Shown here: positions 1,748 to 57,533 of the stretch, one piece after another
Layout: each line of letters starts with the position of its first letter
Numbering within the stretch: position 1 is the stretch's first letter
Assembly: GCF_051903065.1 (NCBI RefSeq)
Contig: NZ_CP178438.1
Source of the DNA: Escherichia coli
Lineage (GTDB): Bacteria; Pseudomonadota; Gammaproteobacteria; Enterobacterales; Enterobacteriaceae
Direction: 5' to 3' (one strand)
DNA length: 64,000 nucleotides
Translations under genes and position numbers: made by a program
The notes under the pieces: generated by a model
Told to the model about the DNA's origin: nothing
The model's database searches: none
The model's input: only the letters and a program-made list of their open reading frames with translations

Positions 1748-1858
1748 ATACGTTATTTAGTTACAACATACTAATGTTATATAGCTTATTTCGCCGGATT
1801 TCAGGTGATGCTGCCAACTTACTGATTTAGTGTATGATGGTGTTTTTGAGGTGCTCCA

Positions 1859-2134
1859 GTGGCTTCTGTTTCTATCAGCTGTCCCTCCTGTTCAGCTACT
1901 GACGGGGTGGTGCGTAACGGCAAAAGCACCGCCGGACATCAGCGCTATCTCTGCTCTCACTGCCGTAAAACATGGCAACTGCAGTTCACTTACACCGCTT
2001 CTCAACCCGGTACGCACCAGAAAATCATTGATATGGCCATGAATGGCGTTGGATGCCGGGCAACAGCCCGCATTATGGGCGTTGGCCTCAACACGATTTT
2101 ACGTCACTTAAAAAACTCAGGCCGCAGTCGGTAA
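1859..2134 (+). CDS. insA: IS1 InsA (transposition regulator, N-terminal part of InsAB' transposase)
   Basis: 91-aa [26 protein letters not shown]... recognised as IS1 InsA; A6C slippery motif for the -1 frameshift at 2110-2116. Confidence 0.93.
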
Positions 2135-2556
2135 CCTCGCGCATACAGCCGGGCAGTGACGTCATCGTCTGCGCGGAAATGGACGAACAGTGGGGCTATG
2201 TCGGGGCTAAATCGCGCCAGCGCTGGCTGTTTTACGCGTATGACAGGCTCCGGAAGACGGTTGTTGCGCACGTATTCGGTGAACGCACTATGGCGACGCT
2301 GGGGCGTCTTATGAGCCTGCTGTCACCCTTTGACGTGGTGATATGGATGACGGATGGCTGGCCGCTGTATGAATCCCGCCTGAAGGGAAAGCTGCACGTA
2401 ATCAGCAAGCGATATACGCAGCGAATTGAGCGGCATAACCTGAATCTGAGGCAGCACCTGGCACGGCTGGGACGGAAGTCGCTGTCGTTCTCAAAATCGG
2501 TGGAGCTGCATGACAAAGTCATCGGGCATTATCTGAACATAAAACACTATCAATAA
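2053..2556 (+). CDS. insB: IS1 InsB (transposase C-terminal part)
   Basis: 167-aa ORF in the -1 frame relative to insA, overlapping its 3' end; recognised as IS1 InsB. Confidence 0.9.
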
Positions 2557-2598
2557 GTTGGAGTCATTACCGGATTTCATTAAGAGCCATTAATATGT

Positions 2599-9699: not shown

Positions 9700-9882
9700 T
9701 TTCAGGAAGTAATGGTGGTGGGGGAAGGATTACTAGCGCTTCGCCCTTCGGGTCGTTGCCTGCGGCAACGCTTTCTCGCTGGCGCTCGAGTCGAACCTTA
9801 GTCGAAGCTTCTCATCCTTCCCCGCTTGGGCAGAATATTTAATTACGGATTCGTTTGAGAGTTCAGGGACTTTTGAAAGTGA
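9700..9882 (-). repeat. tyrT operon 3' trailer repeat region (tpr/rtT-like), about one unit
   Basis: Contains a copy of the last 19 nt of tRNA-Tyr (tggtggtgggggaaggatt at 9713-9731) about 170 bp downstream of the second tRNA, plus a tpr-like ORF (minus-strand ATG at 9815) interrupted by TAA after 5 codons. Confidence 0.6.
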
Positions 9883-9967
<85 letters not shown>

Positions 9968-10001
9968 AGGGGTAATTCAAATTTCGAGGTAATGCTTGAG
10001 A

Positions 10002-10086
<85 letters not shown>

Positions 10087-15989: not shown

Positions 15990-16607
15990 ATGGCACAGCT
16001 ATATTTCTACTATTCCGCAATGAATGCGGGTAAGTCTACAGCATTGTTGCAATCTTCATACAATTACCAGGAACGCGGCATGCGCACTGTCGTATATACG
16101 GCAGAAATTGATGATCGCTTTGGTGCCGGGAAAGTCAGCTCGCGTATAGGTTTGTCATCGCCTGCAAAATTATTTAACCAAAATTCATCATTATTTGCCG
16201 AGATTCGTGCGGAACATGAACAGCAGGCAATTCATTGTGTACTGGTTGATGAATGCCAGTTTTTAACCAGACAACAAGTATATGAATTATCGGAGGTTGT
16301 AGATCAACTCGATATACCCGTACTTTGTTATGGTTTACGTACCGATTTTCGAGGTGAATTATTTATTGGTAGCCAATACTTACTGGCATGGTCCGACAAA
16401 CTGGTTGAATTAAAAACCATCTGTTTTTGTGGCCGTAAAGCAAGCATGGTGCTGCGTCTTGATCAAGCAGGCAGACCTTATAACGAAGGTGAGCAGGTGG
16501 TTATTGGTGGTAATGAACGCTACGTTTCTGTATGCCGTAAACACTATAAAGAGGCGTTAGAAGTCGGCTCATTAACGGCTATTCAGGAAAGGCATCGCCA
16601 CGATTAA
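15990..16607 (+). CDS. tdk: Thymidine kinase
   Basis: 205-aa ORF with P-loop (NAGKST) recognised as Tdk. Confidence 0.94.
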
Positions 16608-16870
16608 TAAGAATTTCTTTACTGACAGGGTGAGCAGGGCGTTTTTATCCTGTCAGTCCGTTTTACGCACTTCCTCTGGGTTATACACCCTTCGCGGTAG
16701 TTTTTAACGCCGCTATACGCCTCACAGAGCGTTTAAGCACCGATATGACCTGTAAAGTACACTATCGCTGTGTGTAGGCGTTATACATCGCTGCAATTAT
16801 GATGAAGGCTAATGCTGTCGGTTTATGGAATAGTTGCTTTGGGTAAACAAAAAAACGGCCCCAGAAGGGG

Positions 16871-18296
16871 TAATGCCGATCAGTTAAGGATCAGTTGACC
16901 GATCCAGTGGCTGTGTAAGAATCCGGAAACGCTCACTCGTTTCCGGATTTTTTTATGCACATTGGACAGGCTCTTGATCTGGTATCCCGTTACGATTCTC
17001 TGCGTAACCCACTGACTTCTCTGGGGGATTACCTCGACCCCGAACTCATCTCTCGTTGCCTTGCCGAATCAGGTACTGTAACGCTACGCAAGCGCCGTCT
17101 TCCCCTCGAAATGATGGTCTGGTGTATTGTTGGCATGGCGCTTGAGCGTAAAGAACCTCTTCACCAGATTGTGAATCGCCTGGACATCATGCTGCCGGGC
17201 AATCGCCCCTTCGTTGCCCCCAGTGCTGTTATTCAGGCCCGCCAGCGCCTGGGAAGTGAGGCTGTCCGCCGCGTGTTCACGAAAACAGCGCAGCTCTGGC
17301 ATAACGCCACGCCGCATCCGCACTGGTGCGGCCTGACCCTGCTGGCCATCGATGGTGTGTTCTGGCGCACACCGGATACACCAGAGAACGATGCAGCCTT
17401 CCCTCGCCAGACACATGCCGGGACCCCGGCGCTCTACCCGCAGGTCAAAATGGTCTGCCAGATGGAACTGACCAGCCATCTGCTGACGGCTGCAGCCTTC
17501 GGCACGATGAAGAACAGCGAAAATGAGCTTGCTGAGCAACTTATAGAACAAACCGGCGATAACACTCTGACGTTAATGGATAAAGGTTATTACTCACTGG
17601 GATTGTTAAATGCCTGGAGCCTGGCGGGAGAACACCGCCACTGGATGATCCCTCTCAGAAAGGGAGCTCAATATGAAGAGATCAGAAAACTGGGTAAAGG
17701 CGATCATCTGGTGAAGCTGAAAACCAGCCCGCAGGCACGAAAAAAGTGGCCGGGACTGGGAAATGAGGTGACAGCCCGCCTGCTGACCGTGACGCGCAAA
17801 GGAAAAGTCTGCCATCTGCTGACGTCGATGACGGACGCCATGCGCTTCCCCGGAGGAGAAATGGCGGATCTGTACAGTCATCGCTGGGAAATCGAACTGG
17901 GATACAGGGAGATAAAACAGACGATGCAACTGAGCAGGCTGACGCTGAGAAGTAAAAAGCCTGAGCTTGTGGAGCAAGAGCTGTGGGGTGTCTTACTGGC
18001 TTATAATCTGGTGAGATATCAGATGATTAAAATGGCGGAACATCTGAAAGGTTACTGGCCAAATCAACTGAGCTTCTCAGAATCATGCGGAATGGTGATG
18101 AGAATGCTGATGACATTGCAGGGCGCTTCACCGGGACGTATACCGGAGCTGATGCGCGATCTTGCAAGTATGGGACAACTTGTGAAATTACCGACAAGAA
18201 GGGAAAGGGCCTTCCCGAGAGTGGTAAAGGAGAGGCCCTGGAAATACCCCACAGCCCCGAAAAAGAGCCAGTCAGTTGCTTAACTGACTGGCATTA
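16871..18296 (+). mobile_element. IS4 insertion sequence, complete 1426 bp
   Basis: Imperfect 18-bp terminal inverted repeats (TAATGCCGATCAGTTAAG... / ...CTTAACTGACTGGCATTA); single intact transposase ORF; flanked by 12-bp direct repeat CCCCAGAAGGGG (16859-16870 and 18297-18308). Confidence 0.92.
16955..18283 (+). CDS. IS4 transposase (DDE), apparently intact
   Basis: 442-aa [43 protein letters not shown]... recognised as IS4-family transposase; no internal stops. Confidence 0.9.
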
Positions 18297-18337
18297 CCCC
18301 AGAAGGGGCCGTTTATGTTGCCAGACAGCGCTACTGA

Positions 18338-21013
18338 TTAAGCGGATTTTTTCGCTTTTTTCTCAGCTTTAGCCGGAGCGGCTTCTTTTTTCGCTGCAGT
18401 TTCACCTTCTACATAATCACGACCGTAGTAGGTATCCAGCAGAATCTGTTTCAGCTCGGAGATCAGCGGGTAACGCGGGTTAGCGCCAGTGCACTGGTCA
18501 TCGAATGCATCTTCAGACAGTTTATCCACGTTCGCCAGGAAGTCTGCTTCCTGAACGCCAGCTTCACGGATAGATTTCGGAATACCCAGTTCAGCCTTCA
18601 GCGTTTCCAGCCATGCCAGCAGTTTCTCGATCTTAGCAGCAGTACGGTCGCCCGGTGCGCTCAGACCCAGGTGGTCGGCAATTTCAGCATAACGACGGCG
18701 AGCCTGCGGACGGTCATACTGGCTGAATGCAGTCTGCTTGGTCGGGTTGTCGTTCGCATTGTAGCGAATAACGTTACAAATCAGCAGGGCGTTTGCCAGA
18801 CCGTGCGGAATATGGAACTGGGAACCCAGTTTGTGCGCCATTGAGTGACATACACCCAGGAAGGCGTTCGCAAACGCGATACCCGCGATAGTCGCTGCAC
18901 TGTGAACACGTTCACGCGCTACCGGATTTTTAGACCCTTCGTGGTAGGACGCTGGCAGATATTCTTTCAGCAGTTTCAGTGCCTGCAGAGCCTGACCATC
19001 AGAGAACTCAGATGCCAGTACAGAAACATAAGCTTCCATGGCGTGAGTTACTGCGTCCAGACCACCGAAAGCACACAGGGACTTCGGCATGTCCATAACC
19101 AGGTTGGCGTCGACAATCGCCATATCCGGGGTCAGCGCATAGTCCGCCAGCGGGTATTTCTGACCAGTAGCGTCGTCAGTTACAACCGCAAACGGAGTGA
19201 CTTCAGAACCTGTACCAGAAGTGGTGGTGACAGCAATCATTTTCGCTTTCACGCCCATTTTCGGGAACTTGTAGATACGTTTACGGATATCCATAAAGCG
19301 CAGCGCCAGCTCTTCGAAGTGAGTTTCCGGATGTTCGTACATAACCCACATGATCTTCGCGGCGTCCATCGGGGAACCACCACCCAGCGCGATAATCACG
19401 TCTGGTTTGAAGGAGTTTGCCAGTTCTGCACCTTTACGAACGATGCTCAGGGTCGGGTCCGCTTCTACTTCGAAGAAGACTTCAGTTTCAACGCCTGCTG
19501 CTTTCAGTACGGAAGTGATCTGATCAGCATAACCATTGTTGAACAGGAAGCGGTCAGTCACGATGAGCGCACGTTTGTGGCCATCAGTAATCACTTCATC
19601 CAGCGCGATTGGCAGGGAGCCACGGCGGAAGTAGATAGATTTCGGAAGTTTGTGCCACAACATGTTTTCAGCTCGCTTAGCAACGGTTTTCTTGTTGATC
19701 AGGTGTTTCGGACCAACGTTTTCAGAGATGGAGTTACCACCCCAGGAACCACAACCCAGAGTCAGGGAAGGTGCGAGTTTGAAGTTATACAGGTCACCGA
19801 TACCACCCTGAGAAGCCGGGGTGTTAATCAGGATACGAGCCGTTTTCATTTTCTGACCGAAGTAAGAAACGCGAGCCGGTTGGTTATCCTGGTCAGTGTA
19901 CAGGCAAGAGGTATGACCGATACCACCCATAGCAACCAGTTTCTCTGCTTTTTCTACCGCGTCTTCGAAATCTTTAGCGCGGTACATTGCCAGAGTCGGG
20001 GACAGTTTTTCATGTGCGAACGGTTCGCTTTCATCAACAACGGTCACTTCACCGATCAGAATCTTGGTGTTTTCTGGTACAGAGAAGCCTGCCAGTTCAG
20101 CAATTTTATAGGCTGGCTGACCTACGATAGCCGCGTTCAGCGCACCGTTTTTCAGGATAACGTCCTGAACAGCTTTCAGCTCTTTACCCTGCAATAGATA
20201 GCCGCCGTGGGTTGCGAAACGTTCACGTACTGCGTCATAAACAGAGTCAACAACAACAACAGACTGTTCAGAAGCACAGATTACGCCGTTGTCGAAGGTT
20301 TTGGACATCAGTACAGATGCAACTGCACGTTTGATATCAGCAGTTTCATCAATAACAACTGGAGTGTTACCCGCGCCTACACCGATAGCTGGTTTACCGG
20401 AGCTGTATGCGGCTTTAACCATGCCCGGACCACCAGTCGCGAGGATCAGGTTGATGTCTGGGTGGTGCATCAGTGCGTTAGACAGTTCAACAGAAGGTTG
20501 ATCGATCCAGCCGATCAGATCTTTCGGAGCACCTGCAGCGATAGCAGCCTGCAGAACGATATCAGCCGCTTTGTTGGTGGCATCTTTTGCACGCGGGTGC
20601 GGGGAGAAGATAATGGCGTTACGGGTCTTCAGACTGATCAGCGATTTGAAGATAGCAGTTGAAGTCGGGTTAGTAGTCGGAACGATACCGCAAATAATAC
20701 CGATTGGTTCAGCGATAGTGATGGTACCAAAAGTGTCGTCTTCAGACAGAACACCACAGGTTTTTTCATCTTTATAGGCGTTGTAGATATATTCAGAAGC
20801 AAAGTGGTTTTTGATCACTTTATCTTCGACGATACCCATGCCGGATTCGGCAACGGCCATTTTCGCGAGTGGGATTCGAGCATCTGCAGCAGCCAGAGCG
20901 GCGGCGCGGAAGATTTTGTCTACTTGCTCTTGAGTGAAACTGGCATATTCACGCTGGGCTTTTTTTACACGCTCTACGAGTGCGTTAAGTTCAGCGACAT
21001 TAGTAACAGCCAT
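18338..21013 (-). CDS. adhE: Bifunctional aldehyde/alcohol dehydrogenase
   Basis: 891-aa [29 protein letters not shown]... recognised as AdhE. Confidence 0.96.
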
Positions 21014-44661: not shown

Positions 44662-44689
44662 AAAAAAAAGCCCGCTCATTAGGCGGGCT
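44662..44689 (-). terminator. trp attenuator (3:4 terminator hairpin)
   Basis: Minus strand agcccgcctaatgagcgggc followed by T8 between trpL and trpE; matches the classic trp attenuator. Confidence 0.85.
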
Positions 44690-44731
44690 GGGTATCTGAT
44701 TGCTTTACGCATGGTGAATACACTGCCCGTT

Positions 44732-44776
44732 TCAGGAAGTGCGCCACCAACCTTTCAGTACGAAAATTGCTTTCAT
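44732..44776 (-). CDS. trpL: trp operon leader peptide
   Basis: 14 codons ATGAAAGCAATTTTCGTACTGAAAGGTTGGTGGCGCACTTCCTGA ([14 protein letters not shown]) with tandem Trp codons. Confidence 0.9.
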
Positions 44777-57161: not shown

Positions 57162-57533
57162 TTATCATCATTCTTATTACCCATTTTTAATGAATTAAAG
57201 GGCTTTTAATACACCGCAGCAATAACAGGTTGAGTTATCTCAACACAAAGTAATAACCGTTAAGGGTGTAGCCTATGATCAACACAAATATGAAATATTG
57301 GTCCTGGATGGGTGCATTTTCTCTGTCGATTCTCTTCTGGGCCGAACTCCTCTGGATCATTACTCACTGATCCTTGACCCCGCTGCGGCGGGGTTGTCAT
57401 TTGCTTTGCCACAAGGTTTCTCCTCTTTTATCAATTTGGGTTGTTATCAAATCGTTACGCGATGTTTGTGTTATCTTTAATATTCACCCTGAAGAGAATC
57501 AGGGCTTCGCAACCCTGTCATTAAGGAGGAGCT

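Follow-up and report, generated by a model that had tools for sequence, protein, structure and literature searches.

A complete IS4 element in the tdk/adhE terminator of Escherichia coli, a recurrent insertion site of IS4 and ISZ

Background

IS4 is an insertion sequence (IS) that moves by cut-and-paste and encodes a DDE transposase in a single open reading frame. We know of no biochemical work on IS4 itself, and none turned up in the literature searched. IS10 and IS50 (Tn10/Tn5), which serve as mechanistic models of the IS4 family, possess devices that guard the transposase gene against read-through from outside. They share with IS4 the DDE and YREK signature and the single-ORF transposase, but differ from it in their 9-bp duplications, their 5'-CT ends and an only loose target consensus. 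They transpose by cut-and-paste and attack the target at staggered points, one on either side of about one helical turn (PMC2266710). In the IS4 family the DDE residues follow a D(60~110)D(100~150)E spacing, and the catalytic E sits in a Y-(2)-R-(3)-E-(6)-K motif; members of the IS4 subgroup are recognised by a length of 1400-1650 bp, ends of the form -AATR--------WTW---- and direct repeats of 10-13 bp (Table 1 of PMC2266710), and iso-forms by an amino acid divergence below 2% (PMC2266710).

The choice of target sites also has described parallels. IS231A of Bacillus thuringiensis belongs to the IS4 family but, unlike IS4, to another subgroup, with CAT... ends and 10-12-bp duplications. Its target, as Hallet et al. 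reportedly described in 1994, is a short GC palindrome, GGG(N)5CCC, amid A/T-rich bent DNA and resembles that of IS4; in nature it inserts into the ends of Tn4430 and not into terminators. Like IS4, IS231A shows marked insertion specificity (PMC2266710). Among other mobile elements, bacterial class C group II introns home to Rho-independent terminators as safe sites (PMC3522654). In contrast to IS4, they are retroelements whose insertion, via RNA-DNA pairing, takes place immediately downstream of the stem-loop, with no cut within the stem and no duplication.

Literature searches for IS4 in connection with tdk/adhE, insZ or terminator and hairpin targets returned only a table of K-12 elements that includes ISZ'/insZ (PMC3032704), the review of the IS4 family (PMC2266710) and a preprint that deals in general terms with terminators located upstream of ISs; IS4 is mentioned only in passing in PMC11251521 and PMC11708052. 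Here we describe an IS4 copy found between the convergent genes tdk and adhE in a 64-kb stretch of E. coli DNA (the window). Taken as a whole, the evidence makes it very likely that this is an intact, probably transposition-competent IS4 inserted in a terminator that is a hot spot for such elements, with hairpins in its own ends that probably take the place of the terminator.

Results

The window carries an ordinary, complete IS4

The features of the locus are collected in Table 1. The element has the same length as the annotated K-12 IS4, and its right end, the reverse complement of TAATGCCAGTCAGTTAAG, pairs with the left end at 16 of 18 positions. The position of the transposase gene agrees with that of the WP_024250060.1 CDS in strain 23CRST027. 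The protein matches Nterm_IS4 (PF13006; 3e-33, 114.3 bits, cutoff 25) and, over residues 126-352, DDE_Tnp_1 (PF01609; 1.4e-31, 110.2 bits, cutoff 23) in Pfam, as well as transpos_IS4_1 (NF033592; 304.5 bits, cutoff 115) in NCBIfam. Catalytic residues, assigned by motif and by the DDE_Tnp_1 match and not by structure, are D133 (AIDG), D209 (LMDKG) and E314, with spacers of 75 and 104 residues; the catalytic E lies within a YREK motif, Y307-R310-E314-K321. With its 1426 bp, a left end TAATGCCGATCAGTTA that has AATG at positions 2-5 and T-T-A at 14-16, and a 12-bp repeat, the element has the characteristics of the IS4 subgroup.

Table 1. Coordinates of the tdk-adhE locus in the window and of the features observed or predicted in it
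Feature	Position	Strand	Remarks
tdk (thymidine kinase)	15990..16607	+	convergent upstream gene, terminator split
Left duplication copy, CCCCAGAAGGGG	16859..16870	.	exact repeat; terminator loop and inner 4 bp of the stem
Complete IS4 element	16871-18296	+	1426 bp; length equal to annotated K-12 IS4
Left inverted repeat (IRL), TAATGCCGATCAGTTAAG	16871..16888	+	16/18 against the right end in reverse complement; consistent with -AATR--------WTW, the end signature of the IS4 subgroup (PMC2266710)
Candidate transposase promoter	16895..16922	+	TTGACC-16 nt-AAGAAT, extended -10 TG; consensus scan
Predicted terminator-like hairpin, left end	16917..16954	+	core stem TCCGGAAACG/CGTTTCCGGA, T7 directly before ATG; faces transcription from outside
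IS4 transposase gene	16955..18283	+	442 aa plus stop; uninterrupted ORF without internal stop
Predicted terminator-like hairpin, right end	18257..18292	-	GCCAGTCAGTT-AAGC-AACTGACTGGC, then TCTTTTTCGG; faces transcription from adhE
Right inverted repeat (IRR)	18279..18296	+	comparison of terminal inverted repeats
Right duplication copy, CCCCAGAAGGGG	18297..18308	.	exact repeat
adhE	18338..21013	-	convergent gene; stop codon 29 nt from the right duplication copy

The K-12 copy of IS4 (insG, b4278; NC_000913 4502090-4503515) has the same terminal repeats, a 442-aa single ORF and a 12-bp duplication. The two copies are 99.0% identical in nucleotide and 99.3% in amino acid sequence (14 of 1426 nt and 3 of 442 aa differ), and none of the amino acid changes, N157T, G304A and R326L, falls on a DDE or YREK residue. 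The element is IS4 itself, an iso-form of K-12 IS4. It is also already known: the complete RefSeq genomes 23CRST027, 23CRST031 and ECNB21-M121 match the window at 100% and their copy is annotated as IS4, at the tdk-adhE locus of 23CRST027 under the name 'IS4-like element IS4 family transposase'. An earlier reading of the DNA from its sequence only had called a complete 1426-bp IS4 with an unbroken 442-aa transposase here; its coordinates were exact, and the K-12 comparison, Pfam and NCBIfam all agree with it. That reading had allowed that a reference might show a different structure at this locus, and the three genomes share the structure seen in the window.

The insertion splits a terminator shared by tdk and adhE

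Within the 64-kb window, CCCCAGAAGGGG is present only as the two copies that border the element, and neither side of the repeat can be lengthened by even one base. A given 12-mer would recur at a fixed position with a chance of 4^-12 (about 6e-8). The same 12 bp border IS4 between tdk and adhE in other strains, in either orientation. The direct repeat proposed by the sequence-only reading is thus real, and its size lies within the 11-13 bp that the reading had given for IS4 together with high target specificity, of which the mirrored arms in register in the flanks are a sign.

Removal of the element and of one repeat copy restores the empty site, AAAAAAACGGCCCCAGAAGGGGCCGTTTATG, the RNA of which folds into a 10-bp stem, AAACGGCCCC/GGGGCCGTTT. 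Read in the direction of adhE, the fold has -19.5 kcal/mol (z = -5.4) and is followed by U7, 29 nt past the adhE stop; in the direction of tdk it has -23.4 kcal/mol and is followed by UUUAUGUU. No shuffled sequence was equally stable. By these predictions the empty site has the properties of a bidirectional intrinsic (Rho-independent) terminator. The target was therefore correctly placed in the tdk/adhE hairpin, but the further claim that the insertion doubles the terminator stem on both sides does not hold, for the duplication takes in no more than the loop and the 4 innermost base pairs of the stem. The hairpins that remain at the junctions have only 3-5 bp (5 bp at both junctions as the incoming tdk and adhE transcripts read them) and do not exceed shuffled sequence in stability (energies of -8.9 to -10.2 kcal/mol, with z about -0.6 to -0.9), and the adhE hairpin now lies 1438 bp away from its U7 tract. 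The insertion of IS4 is thus predicted to destroy the shared terminator by parting the stem from the U-tract, with neither side keeping one.

Each end of IS4 carries a hairpin of its own that is predicted to act as a terminator on transcription from outside. The left one folds with -20.1 kcal/mol (z = -6.5; 0 of 200 shuffles as stable); it was revealed by folding and is not listed by the terminator pattern scan, probably because extension of the stem consumes the T-tract. The right one was found by the terminator scan with an 11-bp stem and is present in both the MFE and the centroid folds of the adhE 3' region. Near the left hairpin lies a putative promoter of the transposase gene, suggested by a match to the consensus at 9 of 12 positions, although such sites are no commoner in the region than in shuffles; its -10 hexamer shares bases with the 5' arm of this hairpin.

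K-12 carries a different element in the same hairpin

In K-12 MG1655, an 'ISZ / insZ pseudogene' (b4573) is annotated between tdk and adhE, in the very same hairpin. The insZ remnant that the sequence-only reading had named for K-12 is there; it is a distinct element of the IS4 subgroup and not a decayed IS4. ISZ' resembles the IS4 of the window in its dyad centre, its IS4-subgroup ends (CAATGCC...GGCATTG) and its remnant of an IS4-family transposase. It differs in orientation, which is opposite, in a duplication of 10 bp instead of 12 bp, and in its protein, with about 31% amino acid identity over residues 23-243 (N-terminal half; tblastn). In a blastn comparison with the window element, alignment was limited to the flanks and some 50 bp at the junction, the interior being without similarity, which argues both against ISZ as a decayed IS4 and against the window element as a copy of ISZ. 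The K-12 ISZ, 980 bp long, has an internal deletion in addition to stops and frameshifts; a relative of roughly 1.4 kb lies on plasmid p1 of strain EC25.

The tdk-adhE terminator is a species-wide hot spot

We surveyed the tdk-adhE site in 5426 complete E. coli genomes; the set includes many laboratory K-12 derivatives, and the following counts are not phylogenetically independent. The site is empty, with the terminator uninterrupted, in 2201 genomes, holds ISZ in 1884, and holds IS4 in 1134 in the orientation opposite to that of the window and in 189 in the same orientation. These four states cover 5408 of the 5426 genomes, and IS4 or ISZ occupies the terminator in about 59% of them all. In strain SCU-172 a variant duplication, CCCCAGAAGGGA, is present at both sides of IS4 at this site. 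The terminator is a species-wide hot spot that has been entered repeatedly by IS4 and separately by ISZ.

Two pairs of alleles, window/TUM13936 and NCTC10444/789, have IS4 in opposite orientations. The IS4 copies within a pair are 0-1 nt apart but about 980 bp of flank differs by 5-11 mismatches, which speaks for recurrence at this site. The same IS4 sequence in both orientations on fairly similar flanks might, on the other hand, be expected if IS4 had entered once per allele and later been inverted in place. We give such inversion hardly any chance. Inverted homology around the element is limited to 4 bp of the duplication (CCCC/GGGG) and to the terminal repeats of 18 bp. Recombination within the latter would not turn round the entire element with its ends, whereas the ends are in fact cleanly swapped and the duplication is unchanged. 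Excision between the 12-bp direct repeats and re-insertion, for example from the copy at bamD, fits the observations and involves known processes.

IS4 targets terminator-like DNA

The flanks of IS4 were compared in 44 distinct left flanks and 14 right flanks. On the left, A stands at -18 in 40 of 44, and G at -1 and at -4 in 33 of 44 each. An A-run is present in 84% of the left flanks, compared with 21% of random positions. In 21 of 44 flanks (48%, compared with 2.9%) a 4-bp hairpin ends right at the junction, and 39% combine both features, compared with 0.7% (binomial P about 7e-26). The right arm mirrors the left: at each position from +16 to +21, 8-12 of the 14 flanks have T (10-12 at five of the six positions). 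IS4 targets terminator-like DNA, in which a GC hairpin stands between an A-run and a T-run and which is cut symmetrically about the dyad; the mirrored A- and T-runs and the C/G positions in register with the cuts show the strong insertion specificity of the IS4 subgroup.

A strict need for a hairpin was considered and rejected. The resident IS4 site of K-12 (duplication CAGAACCAAGAT) differs from that of the window in having AAA/TTT arms without a GC hairpin, and only about half of the sites have the perfect 4-bp terminal hairpin, so neither hairpin nor cruciform is strictly required. Recognition of the target may rest on sequence or bendability instead of structure.

Such a hot spot could in principle arise with no target preference at all, if IS4 inserted almost at random and the insertions in terminators between convergent genes were those that survive, the rest being shared ancestry. 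Intergenic spots between convergent genes are indeed the least harmful for any IS, and genome counts are confounded by phylogeny. Survival of this kind would nevertheless have to account for the base-exact reuse of a 12-bp stagger in both orientations and on a variant hairpin, for nucleotide signals in register with the cuts, and for ISZ, which shares the dyad with a 10-bp stagger; all three go beyond what selection can do. Independent laboratory galT::IS4 mutants, moreover, are all said to lie at one site. We assign this explanation a small chance only.

The window allele is probably active

The IS4 of the window is identical over all 1426 nt to two copies in TUM13936, one in the bamD terminator and one between tdk and adhE in the opposite orientation, and the bamD copy of ECNB21-M121 is 1 nt off. 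The exact allele of the window thus occupies three positions or orientations across different genomes, and the 3-4 IS4 copies of its source lineage differ from one another by 0-2 nt. Because ORF and ends are intact and identical copies are found at other sites, the element is probably competent for transposition. Identical alleles could also come from gene conversion between IS4 copies or from horizontal transfer.

Inactivating substitutions would leave the copy a fossil, and G304A and R326L do flank the catalytic E314, at most 12 residues from the YREK motif. However, A304 and L326 are present in every sampled copy outside the resident site of K-12, at no fewer than 8 different insertion sites, and T157 recurs in the IS4 copy at a further site (L017); G304/R326 is a state specific to the K-12 lineage. 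The three differences were therefore discarded as a sign of inactivation, K-12 being the outlier. Given also the occurrence of the exact allele at three positions or orientations and the near identity of the copies in its lineage, there is a very small chance that one of N157T, G304A and R326L has killed the element. 'Potentially active', the phrase of the sequence-only reading, thus suits what the intact ORF, the DDE and YREK residues and the identical copies elsewhere suggest, and the inactivating changes against which it had cautioned do not appear among the three.

Discussion

The IS4 transposase cuts the terminator hairpin in a staggered manner, with the two cuts placed symmetrically to its dyad axis, and this gives rise to the 12-bp duplication. 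The preferred target is built like a terminator: a GC-rich palindromic core, of which the loop and the inner stem become duplicated, is separated by 3-5 bp on each side from an A-run on the left and a T-run on the right. As this target is two-fold symmetric, IS4 enters in either orientation, and both are seen at this exact position in different strains. After insertion, transcripts of tdk and adhE probably still end a few tens of nucleotides further on, at the end hairpins of IS4; the insertion would then be nearly neutral and the transposase gene shielded from read-through. Transcripts from the promoter-like site would lack the 5' arm of the left hairpin that this site overlaps, and so would escape termination.

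A wider possibility, put forward tentatively and against our own leaning, is that elements of the IS4 subgroup specifically recognise the DNA of bidirectional intrinsic terminators (A-tract, GC palindrome, T-tract), cut it symmetrically to the hairpin dyad and replace the split terminator by the hairpins of their own ends, which face incoming transcription, a 'terminator-swapping' safe-haven strategy. If true, it would explain why one 30-bp terminator is occupied in 59% of complete E. coli genomes and why its occupants, in either orientation, have repeatedly been turned over.

Neither this hot spot nor the target rule is described in the literature searched, outside which lie the IS4 papers of 1979-1984, and our account may be in part a rediscovery. 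Those papers reportedly give the target consensus as AAA-N20-TTT and describe an insertion in the pheST attenuator. Hot spot and rule are a modest addition to a known element.

Conclusions

The window itself holds a textbook insertion sequence, and nothing in it points to an unusual phenotype. The four-state polymorphism of the tdk-adhE terminator can conveniently serve as a typing marker and provides a natural system in which to measure the gain and loss of insertion sequences. The rule of A-run, GC palindrome and T-run, in register with the cuts, would allow IS4 insertion sites to be predicted and offers a concrete hypothesis on how a transposase of the IS4 family reads a symmetric target. 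If the end hairpins of IS4 do terminate transcription, an insertion sequence can occupy a regulatory signal and leave its neighbours undisturbed.

Results

The element is an annotated IS4

An exact-match script finds CCCCAGAAGGGG only twice in the 64 kb, as a direct repeat that cannot be extended either way and that brackets 1426 bp, in agreement with the coordinates of the sequence-only reading, which had described an intact IS4 between tdk and adhE. The element starts with TAATGCCGATCAGTTAAG, ends with an imperfect inverted copy of it (16 of 18 positions matching) and contains one long ORF; removing it with one repeat copy rebuilds the empty site AAAAAAACGGCCCCAGAAGGGGCCGTTTATG.

Its identity as IS4 is borne out. 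Compared with the annotated IS4 of K-12 MG1655, the element has equal length and differs at 14 of 1426 nt, with three of 442 residues changed in the transposase (K-12 to window: N157T, G304A, R326L). The transposase matches Pfam Nterm_IS4 (3e-33) and DDE_Tnp_1 (1.4e-31), and NCBIfam transpos_IS4_1 at 304.5 bits (cutoff 115). Every hallmark listed in a review of the IS4 family (PMC2266710) is found: a single, unframeshifted transposase ORF; D133, D209 and E314 with spacers of 75 and 104 residues; the signature Y307-x2-R310-x3-E314-x6-K321; ends fitting -AATR--------WTW; and a 12-bp duplication, inside the subgroup range of 10-13 bp. All defining features tested in the sequence identify the element as IS4; by analogy through IS10 and IS50, it would be expected to move by cut-and-paste as other family members do (PMC2266710).

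Comparison with other E. coli genomes, the check that the earlier reading had proposed, gave a 100 % match of the window's first 25 kb in three complete genomes (23CRST027, 23CRST031 and ECNB21-M121). RefSeq labels the same copy in 23CRST027, between tdk and adhE, as 'IS4-like element IS4 family transposase' (WP_024250060.1). This is thus a genuine, known element that had been annotated before, and the finding as first stated was already known. Of 5426 complete E. coli genomes, 2479 carry IS4 at full length.

Table. Positions of the IS4 insertion, its neighbours and other features in the window
Feature	Position	Strand	Remarks
IS1	1804-2571		Complete, 768 bp; narK-narG intergenic, upstream of nitrate reductase operon; direct repeat of ~8 bp on flanks (GGATTTCA)
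Rfam matches	9713-10086, 44662-44755, 57202-57404		Gathering threshold
tdk	15990-16607	+	Flanks insertion site
Spacer	16608-16858		250 bp, tdk stop codon to hairpin
Direct repeat, left copy	16859-16870		CCCCAGAAGGGG
IS4	16871-18296		1426 bp
Promoter-like site	16895-16922		TTGACC-16 nt-AAGAAT; weak consensus match; overlaps 5' arm of left-end hairpin
Left-end hairpin	16922-16947 (core stem), 16917-16952 (extended)		Predicted by folding; faces tdk transcription
Transposase ORF	16955-18283	+	442 aa
Right-end hairpin	18292-18257	-	Predicted; 11-bp stem, then TCTTTTT; faces adhE transcription
Direct repeat, right copy	18297-18308		CCCCAGAAGGGG
adhE	18338-21013	-	Flanks insertion site

Elsewhere in the window, the IS1 corresponds to an element labelled 'IS1-like element IS1A family transposase' in 23CRST027; it could affect narG promoter control, and it is the reason why the first 25 kb match plasmids thousands of times. 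The Rfam matches (two tRNA-Tyr genes with RtT RNA, the trp operon leader and sRNA STnc180) are as expected for the region. The spacer between tdk and the hairpin diverges between strains far more than the adhE side, with 8-10-bp indels in several strains. In the comparison with K-12, 470 bp on the left (the final 208 bp of tdk and the spacer, unseparated) contain 24 mismatches and 19 gap columns, and 295 bp on the right contain three mismatches.

ISZ of K-12 is a distinct element

The sequence-only reading placed an IS4-like remnant with a disrupted transposase at this locus in K-12. A remnant is there: MG1655 is annotated between tdk and adhE with 'ISZ', 980 bp, carrying the insZ pseudogene, and K-12 has one IS4 and one ISZ' (PMC3032704). 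It lies in the same hairpin at the same dyad centre as the window IS4, in the opposite orientation; its ends are of the IS4-subgroup type and its duplication is 10 bp long (junctions CGGCCCCAGAAGGG, CAATGCC...GGCATTG, CCCAGAAGGGGCCG). A decayed IS4 is ruled out, since the ISZ interior gives no blastn alignment with IS4 and tblastn detects ~31 % transposase identity across residues 23-243; on these comparisons ISZ is a distinct IS4-subgroup element. Its coding remnant contains a stop and frameshifts and lacks the C-terminal half (tblastn).

The K-12 copy (NC_000913 1294426-1295405) is an internally deleted member of this separate element. A relative of ~1.4 kb, 87 % identical, adjoins etsC on plasmid p1 of strain EC25 (L008:919-2321) and is a pseudogene too, with a duplication of ~10 bp (CGCTATGCCG). 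An intact ISZ transposase was not seen.

The tdk-adhE hairpin is a species-wide hot spot

Four mutually exclusive queries, a genome being counted if at least 80 % of the query was covered at a single place, assigned 5408 of 5426 complete genomes: 2201 with the reconstructed empty site, 1884 with K-12-type ISZ, 1134 with IS4 in the opposite orientation and 189 with IS4 in the window orientation, counts that are phylogenetically non-independent and include many laboratory strains. The 18 others include truncated IS4 copies, e.g. in 2015C-4136CT1. An IS4-subgroup element thus occupies the hairpin in 59 % of these genomes, and of the genomes that carry IS4, 49 % do so at this site. A truncated, frameshifted IS4 in the opposite orientation (L007, NZ_CP027550 778037-779594, and hits H105 and H106) is a rare fifth state; in L007 the IRR end was found, without an IRL end or a second duplication copy.

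Independent events are evident from three observations. IS4 is surrounded by the identical 12-bp duplication in both orientations. In SCU-172 the element is flanked on each side by the variant duplication CCCCAGAAGGGA, so the hairpin that it entered must itself have been a variant. Two allele pairs in both orientations differ by 0 or 1 nt over 1426 bp of IS4, with 11 or 5 mismatches over ~980 bp of flank.

The ORF is intact in all 27 full-length 1426-bp copies collected. The window allele is 1 nt from the ECNB21-M121 bamD copy and identical over 1426 nt to two copies in TUM13936, of which one occupies the bamD terminator and the other is inserted at tdk-adhE the other way round. Recent movement is indicated by the identity of copies that sit at different positions with diverged genomic flanks, and the window IS4 is probably active; the allele identity could also stem from gene conversion between copies. 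A304 and L326 are common to every copy away from the K-12 resident site, so G304 and R326 represent a state specific to the K-12 lineage; T157 recurs at one further site.

At the 3' end of bamD (L089 in ECNB21-M121 and L090 in TUM13936), the duplication is unusually long at 14 bp (CAGCCCTTGAGCTG), beyond the 11-13 bp of older IS4 papers. It also exceeds the 10-13 bp given for the subgroup (PMC2266710).

IS4 targets resemble intrinsic terminators

Scanning metagenomes with the 40-nt IS4 left end yielded 80 loci which, together with the E. coli loci, provided 44 distinct left and 14 distinct right flanks. Complete target sites resemble intrinsic terminators: acacaaaacggCAGCCCTTGAGCTGccgttttttta downstream of bamD (14-bp duplication), gaaaaaaaagcccCTCCGAAGAGGGgc, and gcacagaaaaccccCAGCTAGGCTGggggtt (11-bp duplication). 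Among left flanks, A is found at -18 in 40/44 and G at -1 and at -4 in 33/44 each. An upstream A-run is present at 37/44 sites (84 %, against 21 % of random positions), a 4-bp Watson-Crick hairpin whose end coincides with the junction at 21/44 (48 % against 2.9 %), and both together at 17/44 (39 % against 0.7 %; binomial P ~7e-26). On the right arm the pattern is mirrored: 8-12 of the 14 flanks have T at each position from +16 to +21, and at five of these six positions the count is 10-12. Duplications span 11-14 bp, mostly 12, and are dyad-centred; the two-fold symmetry of the target allows IS4 to enter either way round. At the K-12 resident site, AAA and TTT arms lie 20 bp apart without a hairpin, so the hairpin is favoured rather than required.

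Habermann (1979), Klaer (1981) and Mayaux (1984) reportedly described 11-13-bp duplications, an AAA-N20-TTT consensus and a pheST attenuator insertion, so part of the target rule may already be in print. IS231A chooses targets similarly to IS4. The outcome is similar for class C group II introns, whose homing sites are terminators (PMC3522654).

In five metagenome contigs (L052, L057, L032, L056, L075) the IS4 flanks come from two different target terminators and hence lack a matching duplication, one flank being the tdk-adhE hairpin in L052 and L057. This suggests IS4-IS4 recombination (inversions or deletions) or chimeric assemblies.

The insertion splits the terminator

The sequence-only reading had the terminator stem duplicated on both sides of IS4. 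The insertion does lie in the tdk-adhE hairpin; the duplicated terminator does not stand. By folding, the intact site forms a 10-bp stem, at -19.5 kcal/mol followed by U7 in the adhE direction and -23.4 kcal/mol followed by UUUAUGUU in the tdk direction. The present junctions retain weak 3-5-bp remnant hairpins (-8.9 to -10.2 kcal/mol, z ~-0.6 to -0.9), and 1438 bp now separate the adhE hairpin from its own U-tract. We infer that the shared terminator would have been destroyed, not duplicated.

The predicted left-end hairpin (extended stem -20.1 kcal/mol, z = -6.5) is followed by T7 abutting the ATG; the right-end stem pairs the right terminal repeat with neighbouring sequence. Since these hairpins face incoming transcription, we propose that tdk and adhE read-through would be halted just inside IS4, which would make the insertion near-neutral and shield the transposase gene. 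Transcripts from the promoter-like site would lack the hairpin 5' arm and might escape termination. That all this amounts to a 'terminator-swapping' hot-spot strategy is a tentative and rather doubtful idea.

Discussion

The initial observation is confirmed and its interpretation supported, refined in two points: K-12 ISZ is an element of its own, and the terminator is not preserved but split. The analysis adds one terminator polymorphic in four states across E. coli, a terminator-like target consensus registered to the IS4 junctions, and predicted terminator-like hairpins at both IS4 ends facing incoming transcription. None of the three was found in the searchable literature; they extend, and do not overturn, existing knowledge.
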